From NCBI RefSeq assembly GCF_964213995.1, contig NC_135809.1:109244001-109308000 (forward strand): 64,000 nucleotides of DNA, given 5' to 3'. The notes beneath the pieces are model-generated. The model searched no databases. It was not told where the DNA came from and saw only the letters and a list, made by a program, of their open reading frames with translations. This document shows, in pieces, positions 5,508-59,134 of this stretch. How positions within the stretch are numbered: the stretch's first letter is position 1; every line of letters starts with the position of its first letter. The stretch comes from Mustelus asterias. Its lineage: Eukaryota. The translations under genes were made by a program, and so were the position numbers.

Positions 5508-5846
5508 AAACTTTGGAAGTGACAATATTTGCAAACCCAAAGAGTGTCTTAGTGAATGAAGATATTTCCCTGGAATGTAAGTTTACTGGCTATGATGCAG
5601 CAGGCTTCAGCCTAGACAATGTAGGTGTCCAATGGATTGGGCCCAACGGTCAGGATATCTATGTCTTTAATGGAGGAATTGCTTCTCCAAAAAGAAATGG
5701 AGCAAAAATGTCAACAGCCGACTTACAGAAAGGAGATGCTTCACTTCATCTTCTGGACATACAGCTTACTGAAGAAGGGCAGTACACTTGTATTGTGTTT
5801 GTTACGCCTGAAAAGGTAGAAAAGAAATCGGGATTGGAAGTCTCAG
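5508..5846 (+). CDS. NCR3LG1: Gene A exon: IgV domain (D1), B7-H6-like
   Basis: tttag|AA ACT TTG...GTC TCA G|gtaag; LEC...VGVQW...GDASL...EEGQYTC has both Cys and the core Trp. Confidence 0.92.
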
Positions 5847-17800: not shown

Positions 17801-20800
17801 CCATGTTGGTTTTCTTAATTAATCCACGTTTATCCCAACAGATTTTGTCTTGGAACATCATTTCTAAAAGCTTCCTTATCACTCTGGTTGAATTGACTGG
17901 ACTGCAATTGCAGGATTTATCTTTCCACCTTTTATTGAAGAAGGACATAGTTTTTTATTTATTAGTGTCACAAGCAGGCTTACATTAACACTGCAATGAA
18001 GTTACTGTGAAAATCCCCTAGTCGCCACACTCCAGCGCCTCTTCGGGTAACACTGAGGGAGAATTTAGCTTGGGCGGAAACTGGAGACCAGGAGGAAACC
18101 CATGTAGACACGGGGAGAACGTACAGACTCCACGCAGACAGTGACCGAAGCTAGGAATCGAACCTGGGTCCCTGGCGCTGTGAGGCAGCAGTGCTAACCA
18201 CTGTGCCACCCAGCATTTGCAATTCCTCCGTTCTCTCGCACCACACTCTCATTTCTGGATATAATGATGAAACTTATAGCTGTCTGCTGCGAATTTCCCA
18301 AAACAATGTGCATTTTTAATGTGCCCTGCAAGTGGCAGCATTTTAAATATCTGAAAATTACTTATAAAAGATCCAGAACGGTTTGCTCATTTTATTGGTG
18401 TACAGTCAACCATTTCAAGAAAAATAGTATTCAAAACTTACAAAATTTGACTATTGGTGTTTTTGTGCCAAAAAAGGTTAATTTTAAAAGAAGGTTGGAA
18501 ATAGAAACATTAAAATGCTGGAAACTTTCAGCAGATCTGGCTGATTTGGAGGGATCACTGACCTGAGGCACTGACTGTCTCTCTTTCTCCACAGATGCTG
18601 CAGGACCTGTTGAGTTTTTAATTTATTTATTTAAGACCTTTCTTGAAGCCAAACGGGTCCAAGTACCAGGGCTTGGGTGTAGTGATTGACTTGACCTTGG
18701 GCCATGGCCAATTGTGTTGATGGGGCCAGCTTTAGCACATAACTTTCTAAACTAGCTCAAAAAGGTCACAGAAATTCAATTTGTGCTGATTGCAGTTTGC
18801 ACTGCTTTGGTCGTCTGTAATAAGTCCTCGGAGGCAAAAGTCCCTCCACCAAGATCCCTTTATTTATAAGTCTGACAACAGCATACAGAGTGCTTTCAGT
18901 TAGCAGTCTACACTCGGAGTCCCAGAGGAACTGACACTCCTGGTTAAATACAAAGCAAGAGGCTCCCTGATTAGCCCATCAGTTCTAACAGGCCAACCTC
19001 AATTGCCTGATTAAAGTCATTACATTGTCTTTGGCTGAAATGACTTGGGGAATAAAGCAGCACAACCAAATTGAAACCTCTGTCCTGTGTAGATACACAA
19101 AGTATAATGTCTTCTATATATACTTCTTCATTCAGCCTGTAGCCTAGCAAGAAAATAAACAAGTCAACAAATGAGTGTTTAAACTGTTAACTTTTATTTT
19201 GTTTTATTAGTTCCTCCTGAAATTACTGTGAGCAAACCTTCCATCATTCGCCACTTAGAAGAAGCTACCATCAGTTACCAAGTTCTGAGGTTCAGACCTC
19301 GGGAAATTACAATTTATTTACTCATGAAGAGGATGGGGCATCAAACAGGAAGAAAGATTTTTGAATGGCAAAGCTCGGAGAACAGAACCAGTTCAGCACC
19401 CAGAGATACAACCAATGAAGTGCAGCTTCTTATCAATGGCAATGAAAGAGACCCATCCTTTCCGTCATGGCAGCCAGTATTTTCTGATAACGGAGATGGA
19501 ACCTTCAAAGTACAGGGCGATATCAAAATGTATCCTGATGTATTCAAAGATAATGAGGCTGAATTAATTTTGCATGTTCACCATAAAACCTGTGCACAAC
19601 CTGCTGTGAAATCTATGACACTGGATGTTAGAGGAGGTAAATCATGAACATTATTATTAATGCTCTTTGAATCCAGTCTGGATTTATTTTGTTAACTTGT
19701 GTCTTTGAATATATGAAGTGACATGTGCTGAATAGTAATAAGGCAGATCTGCCATCTGTGGTCTCCAAATTATGGAGAAATCCACCTGTGAAATAGTATT
19801 TTCTCACTCTTATTAATGCTAAAAATTATTTTGGATTAAATAGTTGACTGTTTCCTGTTTTGTTTTTTGTTCCCAAAGTCCCACCAAAAGTTTCAAACAT
19901 TGTGGTGCCGCTTCACACTCATCATAATGAACTTGTGGCCTTGACTTGTTCAATCAATGGCTTTAAACCAAGACCATTAACGATAATATGGCAACAAATG
20001 AGGATGAATAGTGGGTTGAAAGAAATTGTTCGTTTGGATCAGAACAACAGAACAATAGTTGCTCCTGACCATGGGATGATGCGGAAGTGTGACCATCAAA
20101 TAAGTGAGGTTGAATATGAAGACAAATCATATGGCATCACCAGTATCCTAATTATTATGCCAGATATACTTCAAGACCAGGGCACAAAGTATATCTGTGA
20201 GGTACAACACGAATGCACTAAGAGTGTGGAGAGGAAAGAAATAACTCTAAACGTTACTGGTATGTAATATTTTCAACATTTTTAGTGACTGAAGTGTCCT
20301 GAGCATGATATTTCTCCAACTGAGGTTATTGTGTAACTTTTTATTTTACACTTAGTCCCATTCTGAATTTTCAGAGCACAATGGATTAAATTATCTGTGG
20401 AGATGCCGGCGTTGGACTGGGGTAAACACAGTAAGAAGTTTAACAACACCAGGTTAAAGTCCAACAGGTTTATTTGGTAGCAAAAGCCACACAAGCTTTC
20501 GAGGCTCTGAGCCCCTTCTTCAGGTGAGTGGGAATTCTGTTCACAAACAGAACTTATAAAGACACAGACTCAATTTACATGAATAATGGTTGGAATGCGA
20601 ATACTTACAACTAATCCAGTCTTTAAGAAACAAAACAATGGGAGTGGAGAGAGCATCAAGACAGGCTAAAAAGATGTGTATTGTCTCCAGACAAGACAGC
20701 CAGTGAAACTCTGCAGGTCCACGCAACTGTGGGAGTTACAAATAGTGTGACATAGTATGTCACACTATTTGTAACTCCCACAGTTGCGTGGACCTGCAGA

Positions 20801-23800
20801 GTTTCACTGGCTGTCTTGTCTGGAGACAATACACATCTTTTTAGCCTGTCTTGATGCTCTCTCCACTCCCATTGTTTTGTTTCTTAAAGACTGGATTAGT
20901 TGTAAGTATTCGCATTCCAACCATTATTCATGTAAATTGAGTCTGTGTCTTTATAAGTTCTGTTTGTGAACAGAATTCCCACTCACCTGAAGAAGGGGCT
21001 CAGAGCCTCGAAAGCTTGTGTGGCTTTTGCTACCAAATAAACCTGTTGGACTTTAACCTGGTGTTGTTAAACTTCTTACTGTATTAAATTATCTGGCCAT
21101 TGGCTACAGATAGGGTAGAATCTAGACTCCATTATCTATAACCCGTCTCTGTTAAAACCTACAGTTTGTTTTTTCCTGTTTCTTATTCAGCCCCTCCAAA
21201 ACTGGACATAATAACAAGTACAGAAAAAACAATTGCAGGAGAACCCATGACTTTATACTGTCGAATACATTCTTTCTACCCCAAGATCATCAGCGTTACT
21301 TGGCTCAAAAGTGGTGAAATAATGACAGAAGAATCTGAAGAAAGTGAGCCAACTCTGGGAAGTGATGGACTCTATTGCTTGACAAGTAGTGTGAAGAGTC
21401 TACCTACCAGGGCTGATGTTGAGAAGACGTACACGTGCCAAGTAGAACATGAAAGCCTAATAAAGCCATCGGAAGTTAACTGGGTGCTCGATCGACTGGG
21501 TAAGCAACCATTACCACAAACCAAAATAACTATGCTTACTGGATGAAAATCAAATGAGAAAATGACCCATGATTATACTTTTGTCGCACTTTCTTTATCA
21601 TGAATCGAGCCAAAAAGAAATCGCACATTAAGTAACAAATTATATGACAAAAAGCTAAATTTTGCTTTAGACAGTAGATCTCGCATTGATTTTCACCCCC
21701 TGCACATAGCTACACAGTTCCATAAAACATTGTCCTTTATTAGTGCAGGGAGTCCTATCTGACAACGGCTTTCACCTTCATGTTTCATGAATATCAGCGC
21801 CAACGCATATTTCTATGAACCCTCTTTCCCCCTCCAGTCATGACAGTCTAGCTTTCCGGACCCCAGAGTTCTTTTTCAACTGGCCAAATTATAACACTTT
21901 GCAGTTTAGCCACTTCTGGGAACACATTTCAGTTTTTAAGCATCTCCAAGCTCTTTACGCAGCTTTCCAGGTTTTGTGTATTCGTAGCCAGTTTGCACAG
22001 TACCTCAGAAGAGTTCCCATCTCCTTTTTTTTCTGCCAAACAACAGGCAAAACTGATCTTCTCTGCACAAGAAATCACTTGTGTTAATCCTTTCTGTGTT
22101 TGTATTTTTTCTGTTTGTCTGCATCCATGCACTAATGACCTTCACCCTCCAACTCATCTGCGTGTAGCGCTCCTTTGAACCTAGCTGCCAGCCACACTTC
22201 TTAACTTTCTTTTTATTTGTACTGCTTCCAGGTCACGTGGACCTGTATTTCTTATTATCGAAGGAAATTTCAATGAATTCTTTTACAATTGATGCAGACA
22301 GACATTTAAAACTCTTCAAAACATTTACAGATTCCACATACTTTTCAAGGAATTACATTTTTTTTTGTGTTCTGCTTCTGTCAAAGATTTTTTTTGAAAA
22401 ATAGTAGAGCATCTGACGGGTATTAGTTTAAAGGGCTCTTGCTCATTTAGGGATTTATATTGTTTGTGTGGCAGGTTTCCGTGAGCTGATAGCCTGGGGA
22501 AAATCTGGTGCAGGAAATGCAGTTATATATCTCCTTTAGCTTTTAACAAATTTAAGGTTTTTCACTTGTTCACGGGACGTGGGTCTCATTGAACAAGGTC
22601 AACAAAAACCCAGCTTCTTTAACGGCTGCAGTTTGTGCAAGGTAGGTACTCCCACAGAGCTGTTGGCAGAAATTCCAGTAATCAAAAGGCAATATATTTC
22701 CGAGTCAGGATGGGAGTGTCATTTGGAGAGGAAATTGTGTGATGTATTCACCTCTACTTTTCTACTACCAGGTTTGTTATTGAATGAGCCTTGGTAAGTA
22801 GCTGCAGCGCCTCCTACAGGAAGTACACATTACTGTCACTGTGTGCTGGTGGTGGAGGGAGCGAATATTTAAGGAGGTAGATAGGGTATCAAATAAACAG
22901 ACTGTTTTGTTGTGGACTCATTGAATTTTGTTGGAGCTGCACTTATCCAGACAGGTGGAGATTATTCCATTATTAGCCTGTCTTGTGCCCTGTAGTTGGT
23001 GCAAAGTCTTTAGGGAGACAGAGTAGTGAACTTCTCGTGGCTAACCCACGAAATTTCTAGTCAGTGGTGACCCGAAGATGTTGATCATGGGGGAGGTTTG
23101 GTAATTATAATGCCCTTGAATATCAGTGGAGGTGGTGTCAAAGGTTGGTGGTTAGACTCTCTTCGTTGGAAATGATTATTGCCTGGCATATGTGAGGTCT
23201 GAATGTAACTTTGTTTATCAACCCATGTCTAAATGCTGTTCATGTCCTGCTGCATGTGAGCATTGAATGGGGTCTGGCATTATAGTAGTTATCATGTCCT
23301 AGTTCAGGACATATCCAGGAATAGTGATAGAGGATTCTGACACATTCATTGAGAGGTATTATTCTGAGTATAACTAGTTCAGCCTATTATTTGAAAGTCT
23401 ATTCAGCAGCTCATTCAATTTGGCACTAGTTCCCAGATGTTAGTCAGAAGGGTTTGCAGTCTTGGCTGGGATGGGTGCATCAGGTGGTGAAATCAACAGT
23501 GCGGTGTTTGATGGAGATATAAATTCGTTCCAGCAAATATGTCCGAGAGAAAGAACACAAAAGAAACAAAATAATAGTTTTATATAAAATTACATTTAAA
23601 CATGTTACTTTCCTAAAATTTGCAAAAAATATAAAGTACCAAATAGAACTCTGCACATTTAGTTCACCCCTGTCTCTGCTCATCTGCTGAAATCCTCATT
23701 CATGCCTTTGTTAACTCGAGCCTTGACTATTACATCGCACGCCTCACAGGTATCACACATTCTACCCTCTGTAAAATTGAGTCATACAGAACTCTGCTGC

Positions 23801-26800
23801 AAGTACTTCAGGATGTTTCATGTTAAAAACACTATATTTGTGGAAGTTATTAATGTTCCATGCTGGAGGTAATGATGGGGAGTAATCAACACATTGTTAA
23901 TTGAGCTTTTAAATTAAAGATAATGCCATGTCTTACTTAGGATAAACTCTGTGATTTTTTGTGGTGAGTTCAGGGCAACCCAAACGATTTATGACACGTT
24001 TAGTTCAGTATCTACTGTACAAAAACAGCGATGTTATTCCTTTCAATGCATTTAAATGGTGAACACAGTAAGAAGTTTAACAACACCAGACCGCAAACTT
24101 TAAATGGTGAGCCAGAGACCTAACTGCTATTTTCACAAATGTGATGGCAACTCAGACAGCAACTCTTATCTAAGTCGGTAAACACTAGATTGTTAATGAA
24201 TTTCTTTTGAAGTGTAATCTTTGGTTTTCTGGACAAACAGGGCAATTTGTGCAAAGCAGTGTCCCACAAACAGCGATGTGACGGACAACCAGTTCATCTG
24301 TTTTTTTTTTTTTGCTGAGTGTGTTTGAATGTGAAATGTTGGTCAGAATTCCTTGCTCTAGGGAATAGGTTCAGTGAGATCTTTTATGTTTGCCGGAAGA
24401 GGTGGATCCAGCGACTTTTTATTTCTGCATTGTAATGACCTAACTTCCTGTGAATTATTCCCTCAAGCTCTGGAATGGCACTTACCAACTAGACCACCTT
24501 CAAAGGCGAGAGTAGCACTGGTGAACCAAGCTGAGTGGTGTTGGAAAGCGTTGTTTGCAGCCCCATGTTAGCTCGTAGGGAGAAGGCATCATCTGATTTC
24601 AGCCTGAGCAATTGAAAAGTAAAGCACGAAGAATGGCTTCCTCTGTGCTGTAGCCATTCGGCCTGCCATATCCATGCCAAAATCTGCTAGAGCAACCTGC
24701 TGTTGTCATTCCCCTACCGTTTCCCTGAGCCCTCCAATGTTTTGATCTTCAGATAATTATCCAGTTCACTTTTGAAAGCCACAACTGAATCTGCCTCCAC
24801 CATGCTCTCCGGCGGCTCGTGATATTAAACATCTTTATCAAATTCCTTCTCAATCTTCCCTGCTCTGAGCAGAATGATTGCAGCTTTTCTAGTCTCTCCA
24901 CACCCCTCAATCCTTTGTTATAGTAAATCTCTGCTGCAGCCTTAAACATCCTTTCCAATGCAGCGTGCCAGGAATTGAAGACCGCACTCCAACTGGGGCT
25001 TAACTCGTGATTTAAAATGATAAGATTGCAAGTTCAATCCCCGAGTTAACCATTGGTGGAGCGCTATAATCTGCCTTGGCCCCGATGAACTAGATGAATT
25101 ATCACGAATTACTGATGCTGGGTTGGAAAGATTGAGAGTGTTTTATCTGGTGAATGAAAGATTAGGGTTGAATAGCCTGTGAGCATTCATTGTTCAATCT
25201 CAGAAATGTCCAGCAGATGCCGGAGCAACTGTGGTCTGGGACATTGTGAGGGAGTAAAACCCAAAGCAGAGAAAAATAATATTTTGTTCAAGACATCAAT
25301 GTTTGAAAGTTTATCAAGGTGCACTAGACTTTTGTTTTAAATTGTGGTATTCATTCAGTTATGCAACCCCATTAACACTCTGTTTATTTTACATATGTCA
25401 GTGTCCGTGCCAAAGGTAACAGAAGTTACAGCAGATCCTGTCCACCCAGAAGTGGGAAAATCTGTAACACTTTCCTGCAAAGCATTCAACTTCTTCCCAG
25501 AAGACAATAAAATATTCTGGTTCAAAGGGTTTGAAAAAACTGAAGATGGAGTTCAAACAGATGACGTTCAGTTGGATAGAGCAACTGGTTTATACTCTCG
25601 ATGGTCCAAAAGGACATTTATTCCAACTCATTTGGACCACGGAAAAGAGTTCAAAATGCAAATTCTTCACTCTGAAACTTCAAACAAACCTATCTCATCC
25701 AGCCATTTTCTGAAAATAATGGGTAAGCCAGATCCCAGAAACCTCATAGTACCAATTATCGAATATTGAAAAAAGTATTTGGAAATGGACAGATATGTTC
25801 CAAATTCATGAAAGTGACATGTTTTAATAGAGGCTGTTTAGACAAAGAAAACAGCCATTACAATCACTTTAGAGACATTGAAAGAGAAATCTGAACACAT
25901 TCTAACCAATAGAAATATGCCACAAAATTTCAGTTTCTAAAAAAAAGTAAGAACTAGCTTTATTGTATCGAGAACAAATTAAAGCGAGTACGATTAACTA
26001 CATACATATATTATGCACTCTGGTTTACTACTTAGTTCCCCCAAAGAATTCCCTTATAAAACACATCAATCTTAAAGTTAGTTACTTCTGTATGGACCTC
26101 CATAAATGTGCCACAGTCTTGGGAGAATTCTCCTCTGCTTCAACTATTCTCAGAGGGAAAAATACTTAAACCTGATAGGGGTGAAACTGTGATCAGGCTA
26201 GGGACAAGGCTAGCCCGTTGCACTAGGGGTGTGCTGACGCCTGCGATCATGGTTCGCCTAAGCCAGGGTAGAGTAAAGGATCAGCATAGCCAATGGGGTT
26301 AAACCGAGACTCTACCTGATGCAATTTTTCAAAGCCATCTTGGCCAAGATGGAGTGTTAGATCAAGCCCGGGAGGGGGGTGCAATGTCTCATCCTGTCAG
26401 CTTGGATCTTGTTTGATCGAGCCCAAGATAGGATCATTCATTCATGGGAAATGGGCATTGCTGGCTGGCCAGCATTTATTGCCCATCTCTAATTGCATGG
26501 GGGCAGTTGAGAGTCAACCACATTGCTGTGGGTCTGGAGTCACATGTAAGCCAGACCGAGTAAGTTTGGCAGATTTCCTTCCCTAAAGGACATTAGTGAA
26601 CCAGATAGATTTTTCCAACAATTGACAATGGTTTCATGGTCATCAGTAGATTCTTAATTCCAGATTTTATTTTATTTTTTTAATTCAAATTCCACCATCT
26701 GCCTTGGTGGGATTCGAACCTGAGTCTCCAGAACATTAGCTGAGTTTCTGGATTAATAGTCTAGCGATAATACCACTAGGCCATCACTTCCCCCGATGCA

Positions 26801-29800
26801 AAGTCTTGTCTTGTCAACTTGGATCTTGTTTGTCCTTCATCTGGGGACCATGGTTTGGACTTAATTTGAATTGGCTTTTTTGATTAGAAATGAAGAAAGG
26901 TAGCCAAAAAAACTTTATTTACCATCTCTGGACAGTGGATGCCCCAGTCCCTTGCTCTAGTTACTTTCAAATACTTCTAAGCTAATCTGTTTTGGATGCT
27001 TTATTTGCTGAAAGACTATAGGGACCATTGGGGAGTCGGTTAGCTCAGTTGGCTGGCTGGTTAGTTCATCATGCAGAGTGATGCCAACAACACGGGTTCA
27101 CTTTCCAGACCAGTTGAGGTTATTCATCAAGGCCTGCCTTCTCAACCTTGCCCCTTGCCTGAGGTGTGGTAATCCTCAGGTTAAATCACCAGTCAGCTCT
27201 CCGGCTGAAAGGGAAGAGCAGCCTATAGTCATTTGGGTCTATGGTGATTTTATCTTTATGGGAACACTGTAAATTCTCTCACTAGTTTCAAAGTAAGCAG
27301 TCTGCCAACTTCTGACAAAATTCAAACTGTGATTAATCCTCATCTGCCTTGCATATGGTGAATAGTGACTTTCCTTTACTCTGCTTATAGTGCAGGTCTA
27401 TTTAACTGCCATTCACTTTGGCTTTCTCCTTTCTGTGAGCTGCAAGCCACATGATGTCCAAATTGCAGCTAACTCTTGGGAACAGCCAGATAAACCTGAA
27501 TGCTCCACCTGCTGTTTGATGTTAATAGCTTGAAAGACAATATCATAAAAGGGCCTCAAAACTTTAGCATAATAGACTCTAAGCTTGTTTTAATTGCATT
27601 TGCACCATTTTCTATAGTTAAGACATTCATTCCCAAAATCAAAAAGCCATACTCTAAAACATATAAAATGTGGACTAGATATTTGCAACATAGTATTAAA
27701 CTGATGGCATAGCAAAAATTGTTGAGGATCAAACTTGGATTGATACGTATTACATTGATATAACTAGAATGCCTCCTGAATCAATTCTCTAATGCAACAC
27801 GCTTGCAACAAATAAAGCTGAGCTATACATGCAGCTGTAAGACCTTTCAACCTGAATTCTCCCTCACACACACACCCTGCTGGCAGGTCTTTAGATGGGA
27901 GAGCATGCATGCAATTTTACGGTGGGGCAGACCAGGCCTCTGACGATGCTTGCCCCTGAATAATTCCTTAAATAGCCACTTAAGGACCCTTTCCCACCGA
28001 GCTTCACTTATTGGGCTTCAGACAGGGGGCATCCTCCACTCAGGGCTATGCTTCCATTGATTCCCAGGATCTCAGGAGCCAACCATGGCTGCCTCTAACA
28101 GGATGCTGGCATTGCCTTTATTTTGTAGATAATTTTAAGTATGAAGGGATGAGCTACCTGCTTCGGAGTGCCTTCAGAAACTGTGCCATGTCACTTACAT
28201 TCCTGCTTTGCTTGTGGGCTTTGCTTTCAGCAGTAGAATTAGTACTAAATTGTGCTATTCCAACATAATTGCAATTATCAAATCAGTAGCATGAATGTTC
28301 TGTAAGTAAGATTTTTTTTTAAGTTGTCATAGTCTTTGAAAAAAGCCTAAGTTGCACAATGGTAAATCTGATGACTGCTCCTGTATAAAAGTCTATGGCT
28401 TGTATAAAAGTTGAACATGTGGGGGGAAAAAAGCCATCTTTTGAATCTCCTTTTTGATACTTCAACCTGATGACTATTTGGTATAGTAGTCAACTGTAGT
28501 TTCATGCTATTTTTACAGGAATTCCATCTGTTGAAGAAATCAAATTTGACCCACCAGAAGCCACATATGGTTCCGATCTTGTTTTGATCTGCAGCATCTC
28601 TAACTTTTACCCACAAACTATTGAAACAGTTTGGCGAAATAAAGGAGGCCAGATAATCAAAGGGATCACAATTAAAGGACCTGTGAAGGACGAAAGCGGA
28701 TGTTATCGGTTGACTTCCCAATTGCAAGTAAAACCAACTGCACAAGATTATGATGAAGTATTTTCCTTCCATGTGAATCACGTGAAATTAAAAGCTCCAA
28801 TTGTAAAACAGACATATCTAACACTTCCAGGTAGGTTTTGTCCTGATCCTTCTATCTACAAGTTTGAAAAGTTCCACTTCATATTTAAATATTTGTGATT
28901 TAAGTGAATGCATTCACTAGGCCACGCACAAATAAGTGGGATGGCACGGTGGGGTGGCATGGTAGCACAGTGGTTAGCACCGCTGCTTCACAGCGCCAGG
29001 GACCCGGGTTCAATTCCCGGCTTGGGTCACTGTCTGTGTGGAGTCTGCATGTTCTCCCCCGTGCCTGCGTGGGTTTCATCCAGGTGCTCCGGTTTCCTCC
29101 CACATTCTGAAAGGCATGCTGATTAGGTGCATTGACCCGAATAGGCACCGGATTGGGGCGAATAGGGGAATTTCACAGTAACTTCATTGCAGTGTTAATG
29201 TAAGCCTTACTTGTGACTAATAAATAAACTTTATTTTAACTTTACTTTAATCTGGCAGAATCCGACTAGATATGGGGTTGGGGGGTAAGAACACACATTT
29301 ATTATGAGCCATTTCATATTAAATAACTGTGAAGCAAATTCGAATTCGATAAATTGGAGAAAGAAGACTTCAATTTAAGTTACTTAAAGGAAGGATATTT
29401 GATTTAAGGCAGTTATATTCACTGTAAAATATTACATTCCAATTAAATGCATCTTGGAAGTTCTGAACCTTTTTCTTGCCTGAGGACATCAGTTCTTCAG
29501 CTTGTTTAAAATATCAAACTTTCAGAACAAATCTGTTGAATAGGATTTGGACTTTTTTCTTTTGTGTGATACAATTTCCTTCCTGAGTATTAATTCAATG
29601 ACCTTTGTTGTCTGGGATGTCCCTTTGACACCTATGAGTGCCTGTTACAACATGCTGCTGTAAAATGGTACACCAAAGTACATAGAACATAGAACAGTAC
29701 AGCACAGAACAGGCCCTTCGGCCCACGATGTTGTGCCGACCTTCATCTGAAACCAAGATCAAGCTATCCCACTCCCTACCATCCTGGTGTGCTCCATGTG

Positions 29801-32800: not shown

Positions 32801-35800
32801 CTCCTGCACCATCCCTGCAACCACATGTTTAAGTGCACTCTCTCCCTGTTCCTCAACTCGCTATCACGTGGCACCGGCAACGTACCAGAGATGACCACAT
32901 GTTTTGTCTTTGCTCTCAGCTTCCAGCCCAGCTCCCGAAATTCCTGTTTTAAATCCCCGTCCCTTCTCCTACCTATGTCGTTGGTACCAATGTGTACCAC
33001 GACTTGTGACTGTTTCCCCTCCCCCTTAAGAATCCGGAAAACACGGTCCGAGACGTCACGGACCCTGGCATCCGGTAGGCAACAAACCATCCTCGAGTCT
33101 CTTTTGCTGCCACAGAACCTCCTATCTATCCCTCTAACTAACGAGTCCCCAATAACTATTGCCCTCCCGCTCTCCTCCTTACCCTCCTTACCCTCCAAAG
33201 TACTCCACCAGATCAGTGCTATTTTCAAAAGAACCTTTTCTGTACCTATGTAAGTTGTACATTCACAGAAGATATTACAATAATTCTGATGGTAACCTTT
33301 GAGCAAGTTCATGTGATCTTAACTTTAATAAATTTGTGTATAATTCAAACTAGAAGAAAAGATTAATTCATTTGCTTCAAGAGCTAAACATTCATGCCCA
33401 TTTTTGTTTGTTTTTCAGCTCATTCTCCTGCCTTGTCTTCTATTAAAGTTGATCCAACACACCCTGAAGCTGGTCAGCTTGTAACATTCAGTATCTCACT
33501 GGCAAGCTATGCTCCTGAAGCTGTCCAAATGAAGTGGTTTAAAAATGGGAAATCTTGTTCAGGACTAGTTAACACTCGCCCTGTGATTGCTGATGATGGT
33601 CTCTTTTCATCAGTCGCAAGCATACAATTTATGGCGAATGAGAATGATCATGAGAGTTTGATCAGATGCGAAGTGCTTCACATAGCAACAAACGAAATTC
33701 AAGATAAAAATTTCAAATTACTCCTTAAAGGTGAGTGTTGTTTCATGGGATCGAATTCATAGAACATAGAACAGTACAGCACAGAACAGGCCCTTCGGCC
33801 CACGATGTTGTGCCGAGCTTTATCTGAAACCAAGATCAAGCTATCCCACTCCCTCTCATCCTGGTGTGCTCCATGTGCCTATCCAATAACCGCTTAAATG
33901 TTCCTAAAGTGTCTGACTCCACTATCACTGCAGGTAGTCCATTCCACACCCCAACTACTCTCTGCGTAAAGAACCTACCTCTGATATCCTTCCTGTATCT
34001 CCCACCACGAACCCTACAGTTATGCCCCCTTGTAATAGCTCCATCCACCCGAGGAAATAGTCTTGAACGTTCACTCTATCTATCCCCTTCATCATTTTAT
34101 AAACCTCTATATTAAGTCTCCCCTCAGCCTCCTCCGCTCCAGAGAGAACAGCCCTAGCTCCCTCAACCTTTCCTCATAAGACCTACCCTCCAAACCAGGC
34201 AACATCCTGGTAAATCTCCTCTGCACTCTTTCCAGCGCTTCCACATCCTTCTTATAGTGAGGTGACCAGAACTGCACACAATATTCCAAATGTGGTCTCA
34301 CCAAGGTCCTGTACAGTTGCAGCATAACCCCACGGCACTTAAACTCCAACCCCCTGTTAATAAAAGCTAACACACTATAGGCCTTCTTCACAGCTCTATC
34401 CACTTGAGTGGCAACCTTTAGAGATCTGTGGATATGGACCCCAAGATCTCTCTGTTCCTCCACAGTCTTCAGAACCCTACCTTTGACCCTGTAATCCACA
34501 TTTAAATTAGTCCTACCAAAATGAATCACCTCACATTTATCAGGGTTAAACTCCATTTGCCATTTTTCAGCCCAGCTTTGCATCCTATCTATGTCTCTTT
34601 GCAGCCTACAACAGCCCTCCACCTCATCCACTACTCCACCAATCTTGGTGTCATCAGCAAATTTACTGATCCACCCTTCAGCCCCCTCCTCTAAGTCATT
34701 AATAAAAATCACAAAGAGCAGAGGACCAAGCACTGATCCCTGCGGCACTCCGCTAGCAACCTGCCTCCAATCCGAAAATTTTCCATCGACCACCACTCTC
34801 TGTCTTCGATCAGACAGCCAGTTACCTATCCAATCGGCCAACTTTCCCTCTATCCCACACCTCCTCAGTTTCATCATAAGCCGACCATGGGGGACCTTAT
34901 CAAACGCCTTACTAAAATCCATGATTATGACATCAACTGCCCTACCTTCATCAACACACTTAGTTACCTCCTCAAAAAATTCTATCAAATTTGTGATGCA
35001 CGACTTGCCCTTCACGAATCCGTGCTGACTATCCCAGATTAATCCGCATCTTTCTAAATGGTCGTAAATCCCATCTCTAAGGACCTTTTCCATCAATTTA
35101 CCAACCACCGAAGTAAGACTAACCGGTCTATAATTACCAGGGTCATTTCTATTCCCTTTCTTAAACAGAGGAACAACATTCGCCATTCTCCAGTCCTCTG
35201 GCACCATCCCCGTGGACAGCGAGGACCCAAAGATCAAAGCCAAAGGCTCTGCAATCTCATCCCTTGCCTCCCAAAGAATCCTAGGATACATTTCATCAGG
35301 CCCAGGGTACTTATCGACCTTCAGTTTATTCAAAACTGCCAGGACATCCTCCCTCCGAACATCTATTTCCTCCAGCCTATTAGCCTGTAACACCTTCTCT
35401 TCCTGAAAAACATGGCCCCTCTCCTTGGTGAACACTGAAGAAAAGTATTCATTCATCACCTCGCCTATCTCTACTGACTCCATACACAAGTTCCCACTAC
35501 TGTCCTTGACCGGCCCTAACCTCACCCTGGTCATTCTTTTATTCCTCACATAAGAGTAAAAAGCCTTGGGGTTTTCCTTGATCCGACCCGCCAAGGACTT
35601 CTCATGTCCCCTCCTAGCTCTCCTCAGCCCCTTTTTCAGCTCATTCCTTGCTAACTTGTAACCCTCAATCGAGCCATCTGAACCTTGTTTCCTCATCCCT
35701 ACATAAGCTTCCCTCTTCCTTTTCACAAGACATTCCACCTCTTTCGTGAACCATGGTTCCCTCACTCGGCCATTTCCTCCCTGCCTGACAGGGACATACC

Positions 35801-38800
35801 TATCAAGGACTTCCAGTATTTGTTCCTTGAAAAAGTTCCACTTTTCATTAGTTCCTTTCCCTGCCAGTTTCTGTTCCCAACTTATGCCCCCTAATTCTTG
35901 CCTAATCGCATCATAATTACCTCCCCCCCCCAATTGTAAATCTTGCCCTGCCGTACGGCCCTATCCCACTCCATTGCAATAACAAAAGACACCGAATTGT
36001 GGTCACTATCTCCAAAGTGCTCTCCCACAACCAAATCTAACACTTGGCCCGGTTCATTTCCCAGTACCAAATCCAATGTGGCCTCATCTCTTGTCGGCCT
36101 ATCCACATATTGTGTCAGGAAACCCTCCTGCACACACTGCACAAAAACTGCCCCATCCGAACTATTTGACCTACAAAGGCTCCAATCAATATTTGGAAAG
36201 TTAAAGTCCCCCTGTGACCCCCACACATATCCATAATCTGCTTAGCAATTTCTTCCTCCACATCTCGATTACTATTTGGGGGCCTATAGTAAACTCCTAA
36301 CAACGTGACCGCTCCTTTCCTATTTCTAACCTCAGCCCATATTACCTCAGTGTGCAGATCCCCCTCGAAGTGCCTTTCCGCAGCCGTTAAACTATCCTTG
36401 ATTAACAATGCCACTCCTCCACCTCTTTTACCAGCTTCCCTACACTTAGTGAAACGTCTATACCCCGGAACGTCCAACAACCATTCCTGTCCTTGTTCTA
36501 CCCACGTCTCCGTAATGGCCACAACATCGTAGTCCCAAGTACCAAACCACGCCCCAAGTTCATCTACCTTGTTCCGGATGCTCCTTGCATTGAAGTGGAC
36601 ACACTTCAACCCACCTTCCTGTCTACCGGTACCCACCCTTGACCCTGATACCTTCCCCAATACCTCACCACTCTCACTGACTTCTAGACTACAACTCCTT
36701 TTCCCACTCCCCTGACTTATTAGTTTAAACCCCCCTGAAGAGCCGTAACAAATTTCCCTCCTAGGATATTGGTGCCCCTCTGGTTCAGGTGCACCCCGTC
36801 CTGTTTGTACAGGTCCCACCTTCCCCAGAATGTGTTCCAATTATCCACGTATCTGAAACCCTCCCTCCTACACCATCCCTGCAACCACATGTTTAACTGC
36901 ACTCTCTCCCTGTTCCTCAACTCGCTATCACGTGGCACCGGCAACGTACCAGAGATGACCACATGTTTTGTCTTGGCTCTCAGCTTCCAGCCCAGGTCCA
37001 GAAATTCCTGCTTTAAATCCCCATCCCTTCTCTTACCTATGTCATTGGTACCAATGTGTACCACGACTTGTGACTGTTTCCCCTCCCCCTTCAGAATCCG
37101 GAAAACACGGTCTGAGACGTCACGGACCTTGGCATCCGGTAGGCAACATACCATCCGTGAGTCTCTTTTGCTGCCACAGAACCTTCTATCTATCCCTCTA
37201 ACTAACGAGTCCCCAATAACTATTGCCCTCCCGCTCTGCCCCTTACCCTCCTGAGCCACAGAGACGGACACAGTGCTGGAGATCCTCTCACTGCGGCTCA
37301 CCACTGGTATGTCATCCCCCTCAACCGTATCCAAAGCGGAATACTTGTTGCTAAGGGGAACGACCACAGGGGATCCCTGCACTGACTGCTTCCTCCCAGC
37401 CCCTCTCACCGTCACCCATCTGTTTTCATCTGAATTCGGAATAAAGCATTTCATTACAATTGCTATAATTGCAATATTGATGGTTTTGTTGAACTCGGAG
37501 GTACTCATTTGCATGTTTATTTGACATTGAAACTTCATATTGGATAAACATTTTTTTTACGACTGGGAATAGTTAATTTTTGGTAAATTCAGTTTCTTTC
37601 AATACTATTGAATGAGTTACTTAATACTCTTAACATTGGTCAAATGAAATAAACATTTCCATGTATTTAACCAAGTTTCTCTGTTAAGGTATTGGCAGTG
37701 AAGATGCAGTTTATGAAATCCAAGGAAATGATGAAGGTAAAGTATTCACTTTGAGAAGTTCCTGTTTTGTGCATGTTTGTTGTAATCCATAATGGATCAG
37801 TGTAGCATTTCAGGTTACTATACAGAATAAACCAGATATTCCTTTTTAGATCTGCTTTCGGTTGTGGTAGAAGTATAAGGCAGTTAATGACATGATGACA
37901 TTCTGCATCCTATTTTCCATCATTACTGCCTGATTTACAGAGTTGTAAAGATGCTCATTGAGGGTTGCTGAGCAAAAGACAAAAAAAACACATTTAAAGA
38001 ACCAAACACAAATATGATTAAAGCTTTGCAAAATCCTTATTTCTTCAGTAATTTAGTATTTTTGTTTGCCGTTCCTAATGATTCATTCTCTGCCATTTGC
38101 CTTCAGACAAGACAGGACATACATTTCTAATTCGTATGCTCCCTGGAAGGGAAGGGAAGGGAAGGGAAATCAGGCTGGTGAGATTGCGCTGGAAGCTCTT
38201 GACATCTACCCATTAGTAGCCCACACTTGAGGATTTATTGGAGCAGCAGCCTAGGCATGTGGATAAAATAGAGCTCAGCGATTTCCTAGCTGCAGAGCAT
38301 ATTTCTGCCACATTAAGATAAAACTGCCACATCTGGTCATTGCACAAACTTTTCCCCGAGTGCATCAACTAATAGTTTTTCTTCATCCTATCTAATCAAA
38401 TCCAATTTCAACACATCTTTAGTGCAACCATATTTTTAATCAAAATGTGAATAGTGTGTGTGCACATAGCTCGTGATTTTCTTAGGTGCCTTCTAATTGA
38501 CAAGATGATATGAGTTGACTGGATCTTGTGCCATTTCCTCAAGGCAGGAGAGGTGGACCTACTGTTGGCTGCTGAGAGCCTGCACTCTTTCCTTCCTTAT
38601 GCTGGCAACTGGGGCTATCTTTGCGCATAAAAATGATTACAGTGAGATAAACAAAGAGCCATGAGACATTCCTCCTCAGTCTGACACACAGTCTACGGTG
38701 ACAGCTGGAAAAACTTTGAACGAACTGCTGACTATTCTCGTGGCCTCCGATGGGTTGTCCCCTATTCAAACGTTCGAAGGTGGATTACAGTGCACAGAGT

Positions 38801-41130
38801 GGACTCCAGTTTGTCCATCAATTTCTGACTGTTCTTGGTTCTGTATATAATTAAAAACAGAAACCTTAAATCATAATGTCATTGTTTGAGAATGGGCAAT
38901 GCATCTTGATCCTTCAGTCAGCAGCTTGTTTTACTGCATCTCATCAGTATTACATTATTCATGTACCAACCCTTTGGGCGTGTGTGCACACATATCTCTG
39001 TCCTGGTCGTTGGGAGGGGAGAGAATGAGTGCTAGTTCTCACTCTACAAGACTGGATGCACTGAGCACAGCCTCACTGCATTCAGACACACTTAGAAAAA
39101 GAAGAGAAATAAAGCTTAGAATAGAAATTCAGGAATGGAGCTTATGTTAATTTTAATTGAAATAGTAATCAGGATCTTATGCTGTGTTTCACTGAAGATT
39201 AATGAAAGGTTCCACAGGACAAACCCTATGTGGCAAATACCTTTTCTGATTTCCTGTCTGTATCACCCAAAGTGCTTGCCTCAATCCACATGGCTCTCTC
39301 CACATTGAAGTGTTATGTTTCAGTTTTGGGGACTACCAAAAGTTGCCATCTTCTGATTTTAAGACTTCTTCCTTGCAGAAATCATGCAAAAAGTGCAAAC
39401 GATCTGTTGTCCTTATGCACAGTAAACCTGATATATCAGAATGCAGACAATAGTGGATACAAGGGCAACCTTTGCATCATTCAGACACCGGCCCCTGCCT
39501 GAGCTTGGCATTCCCCAACTTAGCTTTGCTTCACCTGGGCAGGCAGCCCTCGACACATTCGCCACCACCGGTGATCGCTGCTCCTGCACTGTTTCTCTCC
39601 CTCATTTGCTTCTGATCACTTATCAGCAACAAATGTGGGAATAGAATGGCCTGTGATTGGAAGATCAGCCCTTTGCAAAATCTTGAATTTCATTTGCCTG
39701 CATTTGAACTGACCGGCCTGTGTGCCAGCTTTTGAGCAGTAGCTTTGGGGACCACATAAAAGGCCTGCAGCCCATGGACCTTCAGTTGATGAAGCCTGGT
39801 AGCAGACAGTCAATAATGCACTGGCTTCTTGAATCTTGGTAAGAAGTCTCACAACACCAGGTTAAAGTCCAACAGGTTTATTTGGTAGCAAATACCATAA
39901 GCTTTCGGAGCACAGCTCCTTCGTCAGATGGAGTGGTTATCTGTTCTCAAACAGTGCAAACGAAGGACGAAGGAGCTGTGCTCCGAAAGCTTATGGTATT
40001 TGCTACCAAATAAACCTGTTGGACTTTAACCTGGTGTTGTGAGACTTCTTACTGTGCTAACCCCAGTCCAACGCCGACATCTCCACTTCTTGAATCTTAC
40101 CAGATCTGCTACAGTGTTCAAGCTTTTTGTAATATGGAGTGACTTGATGCTTAATAGTTGATGTCATGCTAACTGTCCCACTTATCTCCTGTGGCTCTCC
40201 CTTTGCCAGTTGCCAGGATGTGATATGTTTCATAATTGTTTCAACTTTAGTAAATATCTCTGAACTGGAAACATGCCCATTCTGATTGATAGTCCACAAA
40301 TATTTGCCCAGAAATGAATAAATTGTATCAATTTGGCTTTTCTGTGTAACTAGTATATAAATTACTAGTATATAAACTATTAAAAACCTTTTAGTATTTG
40401 TGTATAGCACTTTAATCTCGCAAAGTTCCCGGTGTGAAGAATAGAATTCCTCCTTGTATCTCACTCTTGGATATTTTTGTTTCTTTTATGGCTCCATCTC
40501 CATTATTCCTTTAACTCCACATACACTCAATTGAGACAGAAGGATGGCTAGACTGTCTCTGGCTGTTGTCCTGCTTATTTCTTTTCAAGGCTTGTGATTC
40601 CTGCAGGGACTTGGTGACAAATACCTCACTTCTTGCAGAATATTAGAAGCAGTTGAGACTAAAATGAAAAGGCCCCTAGTGTAGGAGTGCAGAGCTCTAC
40701 TGCTAGAATTTTCCTTGTATTAATAGAATTAAATCTATATCTATGTCACATTTTTAAGAGTTTTATTGTTATTAATTTTATTCCAACAGAGAATTTCCAG
40801 GAGGTGTCACAGATCACTTGCCGGACTGAATGTCCTAAAGCTGGCCAGCCTGTGACGGTTTCCTGCACAATTACAGGATCCGCCGTAGAAGACACCCACC
40901 TCACTTGGTACAGAGAGGTTTACCCTTTTGAAGATATGAGCTGCATTACCAATACACCGTTTAAAACTGGTGTAGGTTTCACCACTGCACTAACTTATGT
41001 ACCAAAGCAAGAGGATGGCAATTGTAAACTCCAAATTGAAGTGATCACTGAGATGGACCCAATTTGCAGAGAGTTCCAGCTGAAATTAAGTGGAGTTGGT
41101 ATTTCAGGAACAGGAAGCAGCTCATTGTGA
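5508..41130 (+). CDS. NCR3LG1: Gene A: B7-H6/NCR3LG1-like type I membrane protein, V-C1-TM followed by 7 Ig domains; join(5508-5846,10499-10831,13343-13456,19211-19636,19879-20259,21191-21499,25402-25722,28519-28830,33419-33730,37689-37736,40790-41130); about 1078 aa plus a leader exon not found in the window
   Basis: Every exon has an AG acceptor and all but the last have a GT donor. All junctions are phase 1 and the internal exon lengths (339,333,114,426,381,309,321,312,312,48) are all multiples of 3, giving one open frame to TGA 41128-41130. V-domain motif GDASLHLLDIQLTEEGQYTCIVFVTP resembles the B7-H6 V domain as I recall it. Confidence 0.8.
7015..7318 (+). mobile_element. HE1-like tRNA-derived SINE, CR1-type tail
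   Basis: GGCACAGTGGTT..CACTG head, TGTGTGGAGTTTGCAC core, GGGCCGAATG...GTAGGGATTCT tail. Confidence 0.8.
7791..8215 (-). mobile_element. HE1-like SINE, alternative tail, with nested Penelope fragment
   Basis: Same head and core; tail ...ACTTGTGACACCAATAAAT. Confidence 0.8.
7940..7974 (+). ncRNA. Minimal type I hammerhead ribozyme motif in a Penelope-like fragment (about 7927-8064)
   Basis: CAC-CTGACGA-A-GGAGC(AGC)GCTCC-GAAAGCT-A-GTG. Confidence 0.7.
8354..8643 (+). mobile_element. Penelope-like terminal-repeat fragment with degenerate hammerhead (8526-8560)
   Basis: CAC-CTGATGA...AAAAGCT-C-GTG and the family tail; near-TSD CTTTA(C/T)AAAAGTCA at 8340 and 8644. Confidence 0.7.
10499..10831 (+). 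CDS. NCR3LG1: Gene A exon: IgC1 domain (D2), extracellular
   Basis: tgcag|CT CGG CCA...GAA G|gtatg; LSCDVTGFYP...W...NNGTFSVSS...YRCLVTH is a canonical C1-set pattern with an NGT sequon. Confidence 0.92.
13343..13456 (+). CDS. Gene A exon: transmembrane segment (not in the ORF track)
   Basis: polypyrimidine tract then tttcag|AG CCT AAG...; translates (E)PKEYSAVPAVVTSIIVTLLVCAASVLAAILYWRKFRG, a hydrophobic helix followed by RKFR; ends GGA G|gtaatg; 114 bp, phase 1-1. Confidence 0.85.
13743..14325 (+). mobile_element. Penelope-like element remnant (GIY-YIG endonuclease region)
   Basis: Translates ...KDILPITEMNTVVYEFRCQCNVWYIQRLTDCIKQ, later HLLNK; CTGATGAG...GAAA near 14305-14325. Confidence 0.6.
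14325..17310 (-). mobile_element. CR1-clade LINE ORF2 remnant (different subfamily) with a nested SINE
   Basis: Frameshifted endonuclease/RT pieces 16556-17377, 15719-16258, 15251-15703, 15025-15327, 14397-14657. Confidence 0.92.
14664..15005 (-). mobile_element. HE1-like SINE, CR1-type tail, nested in a CR1
   Basis: Full head, core and tail; interrupts CR1 ORF2. Confidence 0.85.
17953..18211 (-). mobile_element. HE1-like SINE, alternative tail
   Basis: Head, core and ...GTGACACTAATAAAT tail. Confidence 0.8.
18816..19024 (-). repeat. Probable solo LTR (209 bp)
   Basis: TGTAAT...ATTACA inverted termini; flanks TCGTC/TTGTC (5-bp TSD with one CpG-type change); AATAAA on the - strand. Confidence 0.6.
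19211..19636 (+). CDS. Gene A exon: post-TM Ig C1-like domain D3 (no canonical Cys or Trp)
   Basis: tattag|TT CCT CCT...GGA G|gtaaat; VPPEITVS...ISYQVLRFRP...NGDGTFKV...LILHVHH. Confidence 0.85.
19879..20259 (+). CDS. Gene A exon: post-TM Ig C1-like domain D4 (both Cys present)
   Basis: cccaaag|TC CCA CCA...ACT G|gtatg; LTCSINGFKP...IIW...YICEVQH. Confidence 0.88.
20398..21082. mobile_element. Penelope-like insertion forming a perfect palindrome (arms 20428-20754 and 20756-21082)
   Basis: 327-bp arms around a 1-nt centre (identical mirror ORFs in the track); 13-bp TSD ATTAAATTATCTG at 20385-20397 and 21083-21095. Confidence 0.9.
20984..21020 (+). ncRNA. Minimal hammerhead ribozyme motif (mirror copy on the - strand at 20490-20526)
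   Basis: CAC-CTGAAGA-A-GGGGCT(CAG)AGCCTC-GAAAGCT-T-GTG. Confidence 0.7.
21191..21499 (+). CDS. Gene A exon: post-TM Ig C1 domain D5 (both Cys present)
   Basis: ttcag|CC CCT CCA...CTG G|gtaag; LYCRIHSFYP...VTWLK...DGLY...YTCQVEHESL. Confidence 0.9.
25402..25722 (+). CDS. Gene A exon: post-TM Ig C1-like domain D6 (F-strand Cys replaced by Met)
   Basis: tgtcag|TG TCC GTG...ATG G|gtaag; LSCKAFNFFP...IFW...EFKMQILH. Confidence 0.88.
26435..26793 (-). mobile_element. Second SINE-like family, copy 1 (partial copy at about 12150-12318)
   Basis: Closely similar to 61758-62102; - strand begins with a tRNA-like GATGGCCTAGTGGT...GGTTCGAATCC. Confidence 0.65.
28519..28830 (+). CDS. Gene A exon: post-TM Ig C1-like domain D7 (F-strand Cys replaced by Phe)
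   Basis: ttacag|GA ATT CCA...CCA G|gtagg; LICSISNFYP...TVW...VFSFHVNH. Confidence 0.88.
28952..29230 (+). mobile_element. HE1-like SINE, alternative tail
   Basis: A/B-box head TGGTTAGCAC...GGGTTCAATTCC; tail ACTTGTGACTAATAAATAAAC. Confidence 0.85.
29682..33194 (-). mobile_element. Young CR1-clade LINE, 5'-truncated, with intact ORF2
   Basis: ORF 29759-32776 has APE endonuclease and RT (SKFADDTK); partial ORF1 with SGNH esterase motif (VIGDSLVR); (TTCTATG)n tail; 9-bp TSD CCAAAGTAC at 29673-29681 and 33195-33203. Confidence 0.95.
29759..32776 (-). CDS. CR1 ORF2 endonuclease/reverse transcriptase (uninterrupted frame; true start uncertain)
   Basis: FNARSI, AITETW, MGDFN, SDHN, PGPD, DFSKAFD, GVPQGS, FADD motifs in one 1005-aa frame. 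Confidence 0.9.
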   Translation of the reverse strand: MEHVLGKVGPLQTGRGAPEPEGHQYPGREICYGSSGGFKLICQGSGKRSWSPEVSVEGGEVLGKVSRSRVGTGRQEGGLKCVYFNARSIRNKVDELGAWIATWDYDVVAITETWVEQGQEWLLDVPGYRRFTKCREAGKRGGGVALLIKDSLTAAEKHFEGDMHTEVIWAAVRNRKGAVTLLGVYYRPPNSNRDVEEEIAKQIMDTCGGHRVVVMGDFNFPNIDWSLCRSNSSDGAVFVQCVQEGFLTQYVDRPTRDEATLDLVLGNEPGQVLDLVVGENFGDSDHNSVSFVIAMERDRAGRQGKAYNWGRGNYDAIRQELGGIRWEQILSGKGTDEKWNFFKEQILGVLDRYVPVRQGGNGRVREPWFTKEVECLVKRKREAYVGMRKQGSDGSIEGYKLARNELKKGPRRARREHEKSLAGRIKENPKAFYSYVRNKRMTRVRLGPVKDSGGNLCMESVEIGEVMNEYFSSVFTKERGHVFQEEKVLQANRLEEIDVRREDVLAVLNKLKVDKSPGPDEMYPRILWEARDEIAEPLALIFGSSLSTGMVPEDWRVANVVPLFKKGNRNDPGNYRPVSLTSVVGKLMEKVLRDGIYDHLERCGLIRDSQHGFVKGKSCLTNLIEFFEEVTRCVDEGRAVDVIYMDFSKAFDKVPHGRLMMKVRRCGIEGKLADWIGNWLSDRRQRVVVDGKFSDWRQVASGVPQGSVLGPLLFVIFINDLEEGAEGWISKFADDTKIGGVVDEVEGCCRLQRDIDRMQSWAEKWQMEFNPDKCEVIHFGRANLNVDYRVKGRVLKTVEEQRDLGVHIHRSLKVATQVDRAVKKTYSVLAFINRGLEFKSRGVMLQLYRTLVRPHLEYCVQFWSPHYKKDVEALERVQRRFTRMLPGLECRSYEERLRELGLFSLERRRLRGDLIEVYKMMKGIDRVNVQRLFPRVDGAITRGHNYRVHGGRYRKDIRGRFFTQRVVGVWNGLPAVIVESDTLGTFKRLLDRHMEHTRMVGSGIA
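33419..33730 (+). CDS. Gene A exon: post-TM Ig C1-like domain D8 (B-strand Cys replaced by Ile)
   Basis: ttttcag|CT CAT TCT...AAA G|gtgag; VTFSISLASYAP...MKWFK...DGLF...IRCEVLH. Confidence 0.88.
33759..37431 (-). mobile_element. Second young CR1 LINE, near-identical to 29682-33194, frameshifted
   Basis: ORF2 split into 36115-36840, 35891-36226 and 34107-35933; ORF1 esterase part; same tail; GAATTC at both ends. Confidence 0.95.
37689..37736 (+). CDS. Gene A putative micro-exon: acidic Tyr-containing linker (G)IGSEDAVYEIQGNDE
   Basis: tttctctgttaag|GT ATT...GAA G|gtaaagt; 48 bp, phase 1-1, open frame, lying in non-repetitive intron sequence. Confidence 0.6.
39838..40085. mobile_element. Penelope-like insertion with 87-bp inverted arms (39839-39925 and 39966-40052)
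   Basis: Same family as the 20.4-kb element; 13-bp TSD CTTCTTGAATCTT at 39825-39837 and 40086-40098. Confidence 0.85.
39895..39931 (-). ncRNA. Minimal hammerhead ribozyme motif
   Basis: Reverse complement reads CCAT-CTGACGA-A-GGAGC(TGT)GCTCC-GAAAGCT-T-ATGG; stem I differs from other copies but still pairs. Confidence 0.7.
40790..41130 (+). CDS. Gene A terminal coding exon: Ig-like domain D9 plus C-terminal GVGISGTGSSSL*
   Basis: ccaacag|AG AAT TTC; VTVSCTITG...LTWYR...CKLQIEV (F-strand Cys replaced by Ile); no donor at the domain end; stop TGA 41128-41130. Confidence 0.82.
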
Positions 41131-48239: not shown

Positions 48240-48303
48240 TTGTGTGGCTTTTGCTACCAAATAAACCTGTTGGACTTTAACCTGGTGTTGTTAAACTTCT
48301 TAC
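48240..48303 (+). mobile_element. 64-bp Penelope-like micro-insertion disrupting ERV pol
   Basis: Same sequence as 45425-45488; TSD (AC)CGTAAGAGGA. Confidence 0.85.
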
Positions 48304-59067: not shown

Positions 59068-59134
59068 ATGGGCCGGACAGGGAACCTGTGGCCACCCTTG
59101 GTGGCAGTGCTGGTGACTCTGGCACCGCTTTCAG
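59068..59134 (+). CDS. Gene B leader (signal peptide) exon MGRTGNLWPPLVAVLVTLAPLS
   Basis: Good Kozak context ggggctATGG, hydrophobic core, phase-1 donor TCA G|gtaaag that fits the V exon at 63280. Confidence 0.8.

Follow-up and report, generated by a model that had tools for sequence, protein, structure and literature searches.

Seven C1-like domains behind the transmembrane segment of a shark B7H6-family gene are probably cytosolic and mostly lack the canonical cysteine pair

Gene A of Mustelus asterias, a member of the B7H6 family, encodes a V-set and a C1-set domain, a single transmembrane (TM) segment and, behind it, seven C1-like immunoglobulin (Ig) domains. These seven domains are likely to lie in the cytosol, where the canonical disulfide would likely remain unformed and its cysteines could be exchanged for hydrophobic residues while the predicted fold is kept. 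We regard this reading as well supported though short of certain. In five of the seven domains at least one canonical cysteine is gone, and the same contrast between domains before and after the TM segment is found across the family.

Exon layout and cysteine pattern of gene A

The window analysed here is the whole 64,000-nucleotide stretch NC_135809.1 109,244,001-109,308,000, in which gene A lies on the plus strand; its leader exon is located ~740 bases upstream of the window start. The exons and two short motifs are given below in window positions, with the residues at the core positions (B-strand Cys/C-strand Trp/F-strand Cys) and their codons.

5508..5846, plus strand: exon D1, V-set domain, Cys and Trp complete; core C/W/C (5576, 5633, 5789)
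10499..10831, plus strand: exon D2, C1-set domain, Cys pair and Trp present; core C/W/C (codons 10567, 10609, 10765)
13343..13456, plus strand: TM exon, 114 bases, equal phase at its two ends, hydropathy 2.55
19211..19636, plus strand: exon D3, C1-like, without either Cys and without the Trp; core Y/Y/L (19276 TAC, 19315 TAT, 19570 TTG)
19417..19434, plus strand: acidic dileucine-type motif EVQLLI, residues 424-429, in the D3 loop
19879..20259, plus strand: exon D4, C1-set, Cys pair retained; core C/W/C (codons 19947, 19989, 20196)
21191..21499, plus strand: exon D5, C1-set, Cys pair retained; core C/W/C (codons 21259, 21301, 21436)
25402..25722, plus strand: exon D6, C1-set, F-strand Cys replaced by Met; core C/W/M (25656 ATG)
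28519..28830, plus strand: exon D7, C1-set, F-strand Cys replaced by Phe; core C/W/F (28767 TTC)
33419..33730, plus strand: exon D8, C1-set, B-strand Cys replaced by Ile; core I/W/C (33493 ATC)
37689..37736, plus strand: acidic linker exon, 48 bases, Y1050 in EDAVYEI, predicted disordered
40790..41130, plus strand: last exon D9, C1-like, F-strand Cys replaced by Ile, carries the stop codon; core C/W/I (41035 ATT)

All 11 gene A exons found in the window have an open frame and are preceded by AG, and each of the 10 internal ones is directly followed by GT, all in one phase. The sequence-only reading had placed the cysteine loss of gene A exclusively after the TM segment, with D4 and D5 as the sole post-TM domains to keep both cysteines and with frames that stay open; read codon by codon from D1 to D9, the exons agree with it on each point. 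The C-strand Trp is present in six of the seven post-TM domains. The column that holds Ile on the F strand of D9 is Cys in chimaera and toads.

The product encoded by the window corresponds to database protein P0001 (1170 residues), with 100% identity over D3. Its model starts 56 codons upstream of M57, the Met used by relatives (residues 1-56, G000:C9:109242988-109243263), and the shorter start at M57 is more likely the better candidate. The introns flanking D8 hold a near-identical LINE pair on the minus strand (window 29759-32776 and 34107-37556); the first contains a 1005-codon open frame, presumably with endonuclease- and reverse-transcriptase-like motifs.

Cysteine loss across the family

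Relatives were gathered by likeness to P0001, giving 181 proteins, or 170 once 11 isoforms and duplicates had been removed. Cysteines were counted in complete domains of the 129 proteins with exactly one predicted TM segment, leaving out 37 without a predicted segment and 4 with several. The pair is intact in 171 of 178 pre-TM C1 domains versus 264 of 515 post-TM domains. When the domains were clustered at 35% identity, leaving out the Cys columns, the pair was found in 39/40 pre-TM clusters versus 45/102 post-TM clusters. Among the 106 proteins with both kinds of domain, 86 lose more after the segment, 18 tie and 2 show the reverse. At the pre-TM loss rate (7/178), five or more losses in seven domains have p ~2e-6. 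The domains are, however, not fully independent, and such p-values overstate independence, because P0001 served as the reference for choosing the set and the profile derives from the B7H6 family itself.

Four long extracellular arrays (P0178, P0168, P0078, P0156) resemble gene A in having C1 domains in tandem (7-13 of them), each the size of one exon unit. They precede a C-terminal TM segment, whereas the gene A array follows its own, and they keep the pair in 40/40 domains; array length therefore does not explain the loss. We take these arrays to include IgW- and IgD-like heavy chains, among them P0178 and P0168, by their TM motif. P0078 and P0156, both from sharks, have 7-10 C1 domains outside the cell, followed by a C-terminal TM segment unlike that of antibodies and by a short tail; they are either unnamed or labelled titin-like.

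The claim that all replacements are hydrophobic or aromatic extends well beyond gene A, since hydrophobic residues account for 319 of 329 post-TM replacements. Five of the seven pre-TM exceptions are Cys to Ser; the main ones are P0112, P0166, P0167 and P0179 (frog where named), in which the B-strand Cys of a pre-TM C1 domain has become Ser. There are also post-TM arrays with nearly all pairs intact, P0080 (10/11) and P0166 (9/9).

Domain by domain, in the rows of a 48-row alignment that cover each domain, the pair is retained in D1 (45/45), D2 (46/46), D4 (43/44) and D5 (47/47), and in D3 (1/43), D6 (0/45), D7 (11/38), D8 (2/34) and D9 (11/35). Orthologs that retained the cysteines would have spoken against the sequence-only reading; instead, orthologs share the losses. 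Its description of these losses as independent needs qualification: they are separate per domain, but those on the D3 F strand, the D6 F strand and the D8 B strand are inherited events. Because these three are common to nearly all relatives, they are old, and appear from the alignment to have been lost early and then passed on, so that most losses are ancient and not peculiar to this shark. The residues on the F strands of D7 and D9 differ between lineages. On the B strand of D3, Cys is found in 24/43 relatives, including chimaera, lungfish and toads, while several shark and ray lines have Tyr, Phe or Trp.

The cysteine left without a partner is itself retained, in D6 (B strand, 44/45), D7 (B strand, 36/38), D8 (F strand, 34/34) and D9 (B strand, 32/35). 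A conserved Cys in this array thus need not mean a disulfide, which softens, though it does not remove, the objection raised by the strictly kept pairs of D4 and D5.

Predicted fold of the post-TM domains

The AlphaFold model of the gene A chain comprises nine Ig sandwiches with a mean pLDDT of 82 (~90 within domains); confidence is low only in the leader, next to the TM segment, in the loop of D3 (residues 412-433), in the linker between D8 and D9, and in the tail. The fold had been expected to survive the cysteine loss, and in these predictions all seven post-TM domains retain the Ig sandwich. Alignment to Pfam models agreed in part, with C1-set scores above cut-off for D2 and D4-D8 (6/8 constant-type domains, 5/7 post-TM domains), but no family for D3 and only a sub-threshold V-set match for D9. 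Both D3 and D9 align to the other domains and are predicted Ig sandwiches.

Modelled alone, D3 reached a pLDDT of 85 and a pTM of 0.76, with MHC class II and beta-2-microglobulin chains as the best Foldseek rows. A wide structure search placed the B7-H6 C domain in the top row (Z 12.3, rmsd 1.7 Å, 97 residues superposed), level with Ig domains of both C and V type. The D3 sequence alone found no match among solved structures at E up to 1, and an Atlas search returned only general C1-set clusters. A profile comparison paired D2 with D2 columns and is uninformative for D3. In a domain tree from a quick search (115 rows, 104 columns) the domains group by position across species and D6-D9 fall together with weak support; with 56 of 112 forks open, the tree neither orders the losses nor shows a single origin of the array.

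Membrane topology

Gene A has one internal hydrophobic segment, with none at the C terminus and no further one in D9, and basic residues lie on the C-terminal side of the segment in the TM exon. The hydropathy of the segment is 2.2-3.3 across full-length relatives, and in the 114 relatives with post-TM domains the net charge after the segment, compared with that before it, is more positive in 89, equal in 16 and less so in 9. Under established topology rules, a signal peptide would be followed by stop-transfer at the single TM segment with its basic residues behind, and in the absence of a second signal everything after the segment would stay in the cytosol. In IGSF1, by comparison, Ig domains flank an internal TM segment, the lumen is re-entered via a second hydrophobic signal, and there is a C-terminal anchor; gene A has neither that signal nor that anchor. 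Judged by these features, the post-TM array of gene A, which is real and ancient, is probably cytosolic.

Glycosylation sequons occur after the segment at chance level, in 325 of 2119 Asn (0.153), with an S+T frequency of 0.158 and a reverse-motif frequency of 0.168. Before the segment there are 0.30 sequons per Asn at an S+T frequency of 0.195, a modest excess because the reverse-motif control already reaches 0.25. D4 and D5 show no clear excess (0.14 and 0.18 per Asn). Gene A carries three sequons in D3 and D4, at N412, N553 and N621, and that at N553 in D4 is retained in 12/32 relatives; single sequons are uninformative, because even the pre-TM sequon at N271 is retained in only 5/47.

The D3 loop spans ~35 residues, is predicted disordered and changes fast. 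Signals for AP adaptors follow the pattern [DE]xxxL[LIM] in an exposed cytosolic loop, and acidic dileucine motifs are read by cytosolic adaptor complexes. A motif of this type is present in 29/47 D3 loops, with carriers ranging from chimaera to toads, while shuffled sequences mostly give 0.03-0.1 per loop; 18/47 loops are without it, and the carriers share it by descent. A tyrosine in the D8-D9 linker is found in 8/9 sharks with a full linker, mostly as Y-x-N-hydrophobic, and is missing from rays and chimaera.

The cysteine loss had been put forward as support for this topology in its own right. Its direction holds family-wide, but loss alone is no proof of the cytosolic side, because extracellular CD4 domains can lose the B-strand Cys (available text of PMC4354306), seven pre-TM domains are exceptions and the D4 and D5 pairs are kept. 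The same three facts, the last as strict as in D1 and D2, together with the three sequons in D3 and D4, would suit an array that the main product exposes to the lumen or the cell exterior, either because the segment fails to stop transfer or because the topology is inverted, with disulfides lost as in some extracellular Ig domains. Such a placement is hard to reconcile with a segment of this hydropathy, followed by basic residues and by no second signal or anchor; nor would an inverted chain need the D1 and D2 pairs that are intact in every relative, and the long arrays that do lie outside the cell keep every pair. We therefore consider it improbable. A reducing cytosol as the cause of the loss fits the direction and the family-wide contrast; the pairs kept in D4 (43/44) and D5 (47/47) count against it.

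A further possibility is that the topology is two-way: the form with the TM segment would be cytosolic as proposed, and regular skipping of the TM exon would yield a soluble, secreted B7H6 in which the array enters the secretory path and which would account for the retention of the D4 and D5 pairs. This would add to the main reading, not replace it. With 114 bases and equal phases, the exon can be skipped in frame, and database isoforms lacking exactly the TM segment exist for horn shark (P0199), caecilian (P0204), Bombina (P0049, the named NCR3LG1 isoform X2) and Rana (P0090); the nearby paralog C, described below, has an interrupted TM exon and may be the source of some contigs. These isoforms are, however, automatic gene models, the Bombina and Rana entries were selected because their representatives were TM-less, and no TM-less entry occurs among 8 chimaera and 3 coelacanth entries. 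The horn shark post-TM domains are without any canonical Cys, and D4 and D5 do not stand out in sequons. Since the partnerless cysteines are as conserved as those of D4 and D5, a disulfide is not needed to explain the latter. Regular skipping thus seems rather unlikely to us, if worth keeping in view.

Splicing and selection

Contigs from runs without an RNA label on record were compared with window 18300-26300. Those of three runs have D4-D5 and D5-D6 spliced at GT..AG, and the D3-D4 joint is present in one contig. Spliced contigs of run X11 show no differences from the window, while run X4 matched repeats only. No contig displays the joint between the TM exon and D3 in the stretch compared, as would be expected if D3-D9 formed a separate transcript and the join were an annotation artefact. 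Yet neither a leader exon nor any further Ig exon turned up between the two, their phases agree, and one X11 contig (record 9) is identical to D3 from its first base and continues into 151 upstream bases that do not fit the intron. The order of TM exon and D3 is moreover constant from chimaera to frogs and in the GenBank protein named B7H6, and recurs in six gene copies of the cluster. We infer that the joint belongs to the gene A transcript, because the phases match, no other exon lies between and the exon order is conserved; a separate transcript is very improbable.

Decay, or nearly neutral drift, of the post-TM exons had been argued against beforehand, with a dN/dS near 1 named as the result that would speak for it. 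That comparison was not cleanly passed. Against paralog C, dN/dS is 0.7-1.2 in the post-TM exons, and against run X1 gene A shows 4 silent and 13 replacement changes (17 of 19 differences listed), as neutrality gives; both shallow comparisons lie near 1 and hold too few changes to separate fast adaptive change from weak constraint. The comparison with paralog C, itself damaged, also gives 1.83 for D1 and 0.67 for D2 from few changes, and against paralog B the values are 0.12-0.46, with silent sites saturated. The argument against decay nonetheless stands, because frames are open in all lineages compared, from chimaera to toads, spliced contigs exist, and protein identity to chimaera is 40-54% over D3-D9. 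D4-D9 (45-54%) are conserved as well as D1 (48%) and D2 (38%), or better. We give decay hardly any weight.

Identity of the locus and its paralogs

By its best PDB match, its neighbour genes and a nurse shark entry named B7H6, gene A belongs to the shark B7H6/NCR3LG1 locus. Human B7-H6 is the top match of the V-C1 part among PDB sequences (E 2.6e-24), and the predicted V-C1 model superposes on it at 2.5 Å. Like B7H6/NCR3LG1, it is a type I protein that crosses the membrane once and has each domain encoded by its own exon. A Gag-like cytoplasmic domain like that of the human form is lacking, the post-TM part matching C1-set models; such a tail is a trait of the human protein and does not define the family under the names that shark and frog proteins bear. 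NCR3LG1 is the name given to two frog entries with the gene A layout. On the chromosome, nucleobindin exons (C9:108.85 Mb) and an RPS13-type exon (C9:108.61 Mb) are located left of the B7H6 cluster, which begins at 109.00 Mb; in the human B7H6 region, which we take to be 11p15.1, NUCB2 and RPS13 are presumably adjacent. The nearest match to a Kir channel on C9 is 11 Mb distant. Proteins with the V-C1-TM-(C1)n layout occur among sharks and rays, in chimaera, lungfish and coelacanth, and among amphibians (caecilian, newt and frogs); a layout with post-TM domains is also present in reedfish and, in altered form, in a teleost.

At least six copies with V, C1, TM-like and D3 exons lie in the 664 kb examined, together with one further V exon and extra D3 exons. 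One of them, gene B, begins within the window:

59068..59134, plus strand: gene B (paralog) leader exon
63280..63642, plus strand: gene B V exon, both Cys present (63354, 63585)

Its V domain has both cysteines, as had been noted, and the gene runs past the window end as C1-TM-D3-D4-D5-D6. Between genes A and B, a retrovirus-like element on the plus strand (window 46097-52366) is broken by stops and a SINE; we take its frames to be gag-, pol- and env-like from the open reading frame list and motifs.

Paralog C (G000:C9:109339734-109396613, minus strand, L012-L017) lies inverted and was copied recently from gene A. Repeats of ~0.95 kb interrupt its TM exon, its D5 splice donor is AT, D6-D8 were not found and two leader-like exons are present. 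A second D3 type among the contigs of X1 and X11 may stem from it. The divergent paralog D (G000:C9:109415728-109438030, L019-L022) has both canonical cysteines in D3 and D8 and neither in D7; it is near P0054-type proteins and may mirror an older state. Copies at G000:C9:108999960-109174967 (L064-L068, L029-L042) have a tail in which D3-like exons are repeated, each with Trp in place of the B-strand Cys and none with a canonical Cys; the horn shark protein P0056 has seven repeats of this kind.

Discussion

The closest system is human B7-H6 (NCR3LG1), the NKp30 ligand, which shares with gene A the V and C1 ectodomain and type I layout, is its best match in sequence and fold, and agrees in chromosomal neighbours. 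The human gene is presumably single, as opposed to at least six copies in the shark cluster. The tails differ: according to the available text of PMC2715080, the human one is Gag-like and carries tyrosine motifs, whereas that of gene A consists of seven C1-like domains. Nurse shark B7H6 (QTT61906.1, P0008, 1092 aa) has the nine-domain layout in common with gene A and the same cysteine pattern (D3 Y/V/L, D6 M, D7 F, D8 V, D9 V); with 57% identity over the post-TM part it is an ortholog or close paralog and no different in kind.

The analogy with titin made in the sequence-only reading fits loosely. Titin and other cytosolic I-set arrays are tandem cytosolic Ig domains with a mixed cysteine pattern, CysB occurring in 43% and CysF in 42% of titin domains (available text of PMC5766482). 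They are, however, I-set arrays without a membrane anchor, whereas gene A has C1-type domains on a type I immune ligand. In the available text of PMC2715080, PMC4354306, PMC5766482, PMC12051499, PMC11599192, PMC10751288, PMC12227049 and PMC12272517, we found no mention of B7H6 having Ig domains on its cytoplasmic side, and the elephant shark genome supplement (PMC3964593) holds no B7H6 passage. Gene A is thus best described as belonging to a known gene family with what appears to be an unusual inner architecture, part of which may already be in print, because the family is known and the full-length nurse shark sequence was deposited by specialists.

We propose that a disulfide likely absent in the cytosol would leave the canonical cysteines replaceable by other hydrophobic residues, and that the remaining ones would persist because they are buried in the core, as the cysteines without a partner in D6, D7, D8 and D9 suggest. 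Least certain are the functional parts of the proposal. The outer V-C1 pair may bind NKp30-type receptors, for which it is a candidate. The inner array may form a folded scaffold whose D3 loop provides an acidic dileucine signal for sorting and whose D8-D9 linker provides a tyrosine site, and these signals might set the amount of ligand that reaches or stays on the cell surface.

In a more speculative extension, which taken as a whole we hold to be doubtful, C1-set domains, a type otherwise known outside the cell, would have formed a cytosolic array in the ancestral jawed-vertebrate B7H6, with a sorting signal in the first of them; skipping of the TM exon would flip the array into a soluble decoy, so that the domains fold both with and without disulfides, and humans would have swapped the array for a Gag-like tail.

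Antibodies, T-cell receptors and MHC molecules are assembled from C1-set domains, which are normally found outside the cell and held together there by a disulfide; we know of no other cytosolic C1-set array. If the cytosolic placement is true, this conserved array would show that the C1 fold can work without its disulfide and would offer a source of natural disulfide-free constant domains for study. It would also give a new picture of the oldest NK receptor-ligand pair, in which a large folded tail, later replaced, may have served the ligand for signalling or sorting.
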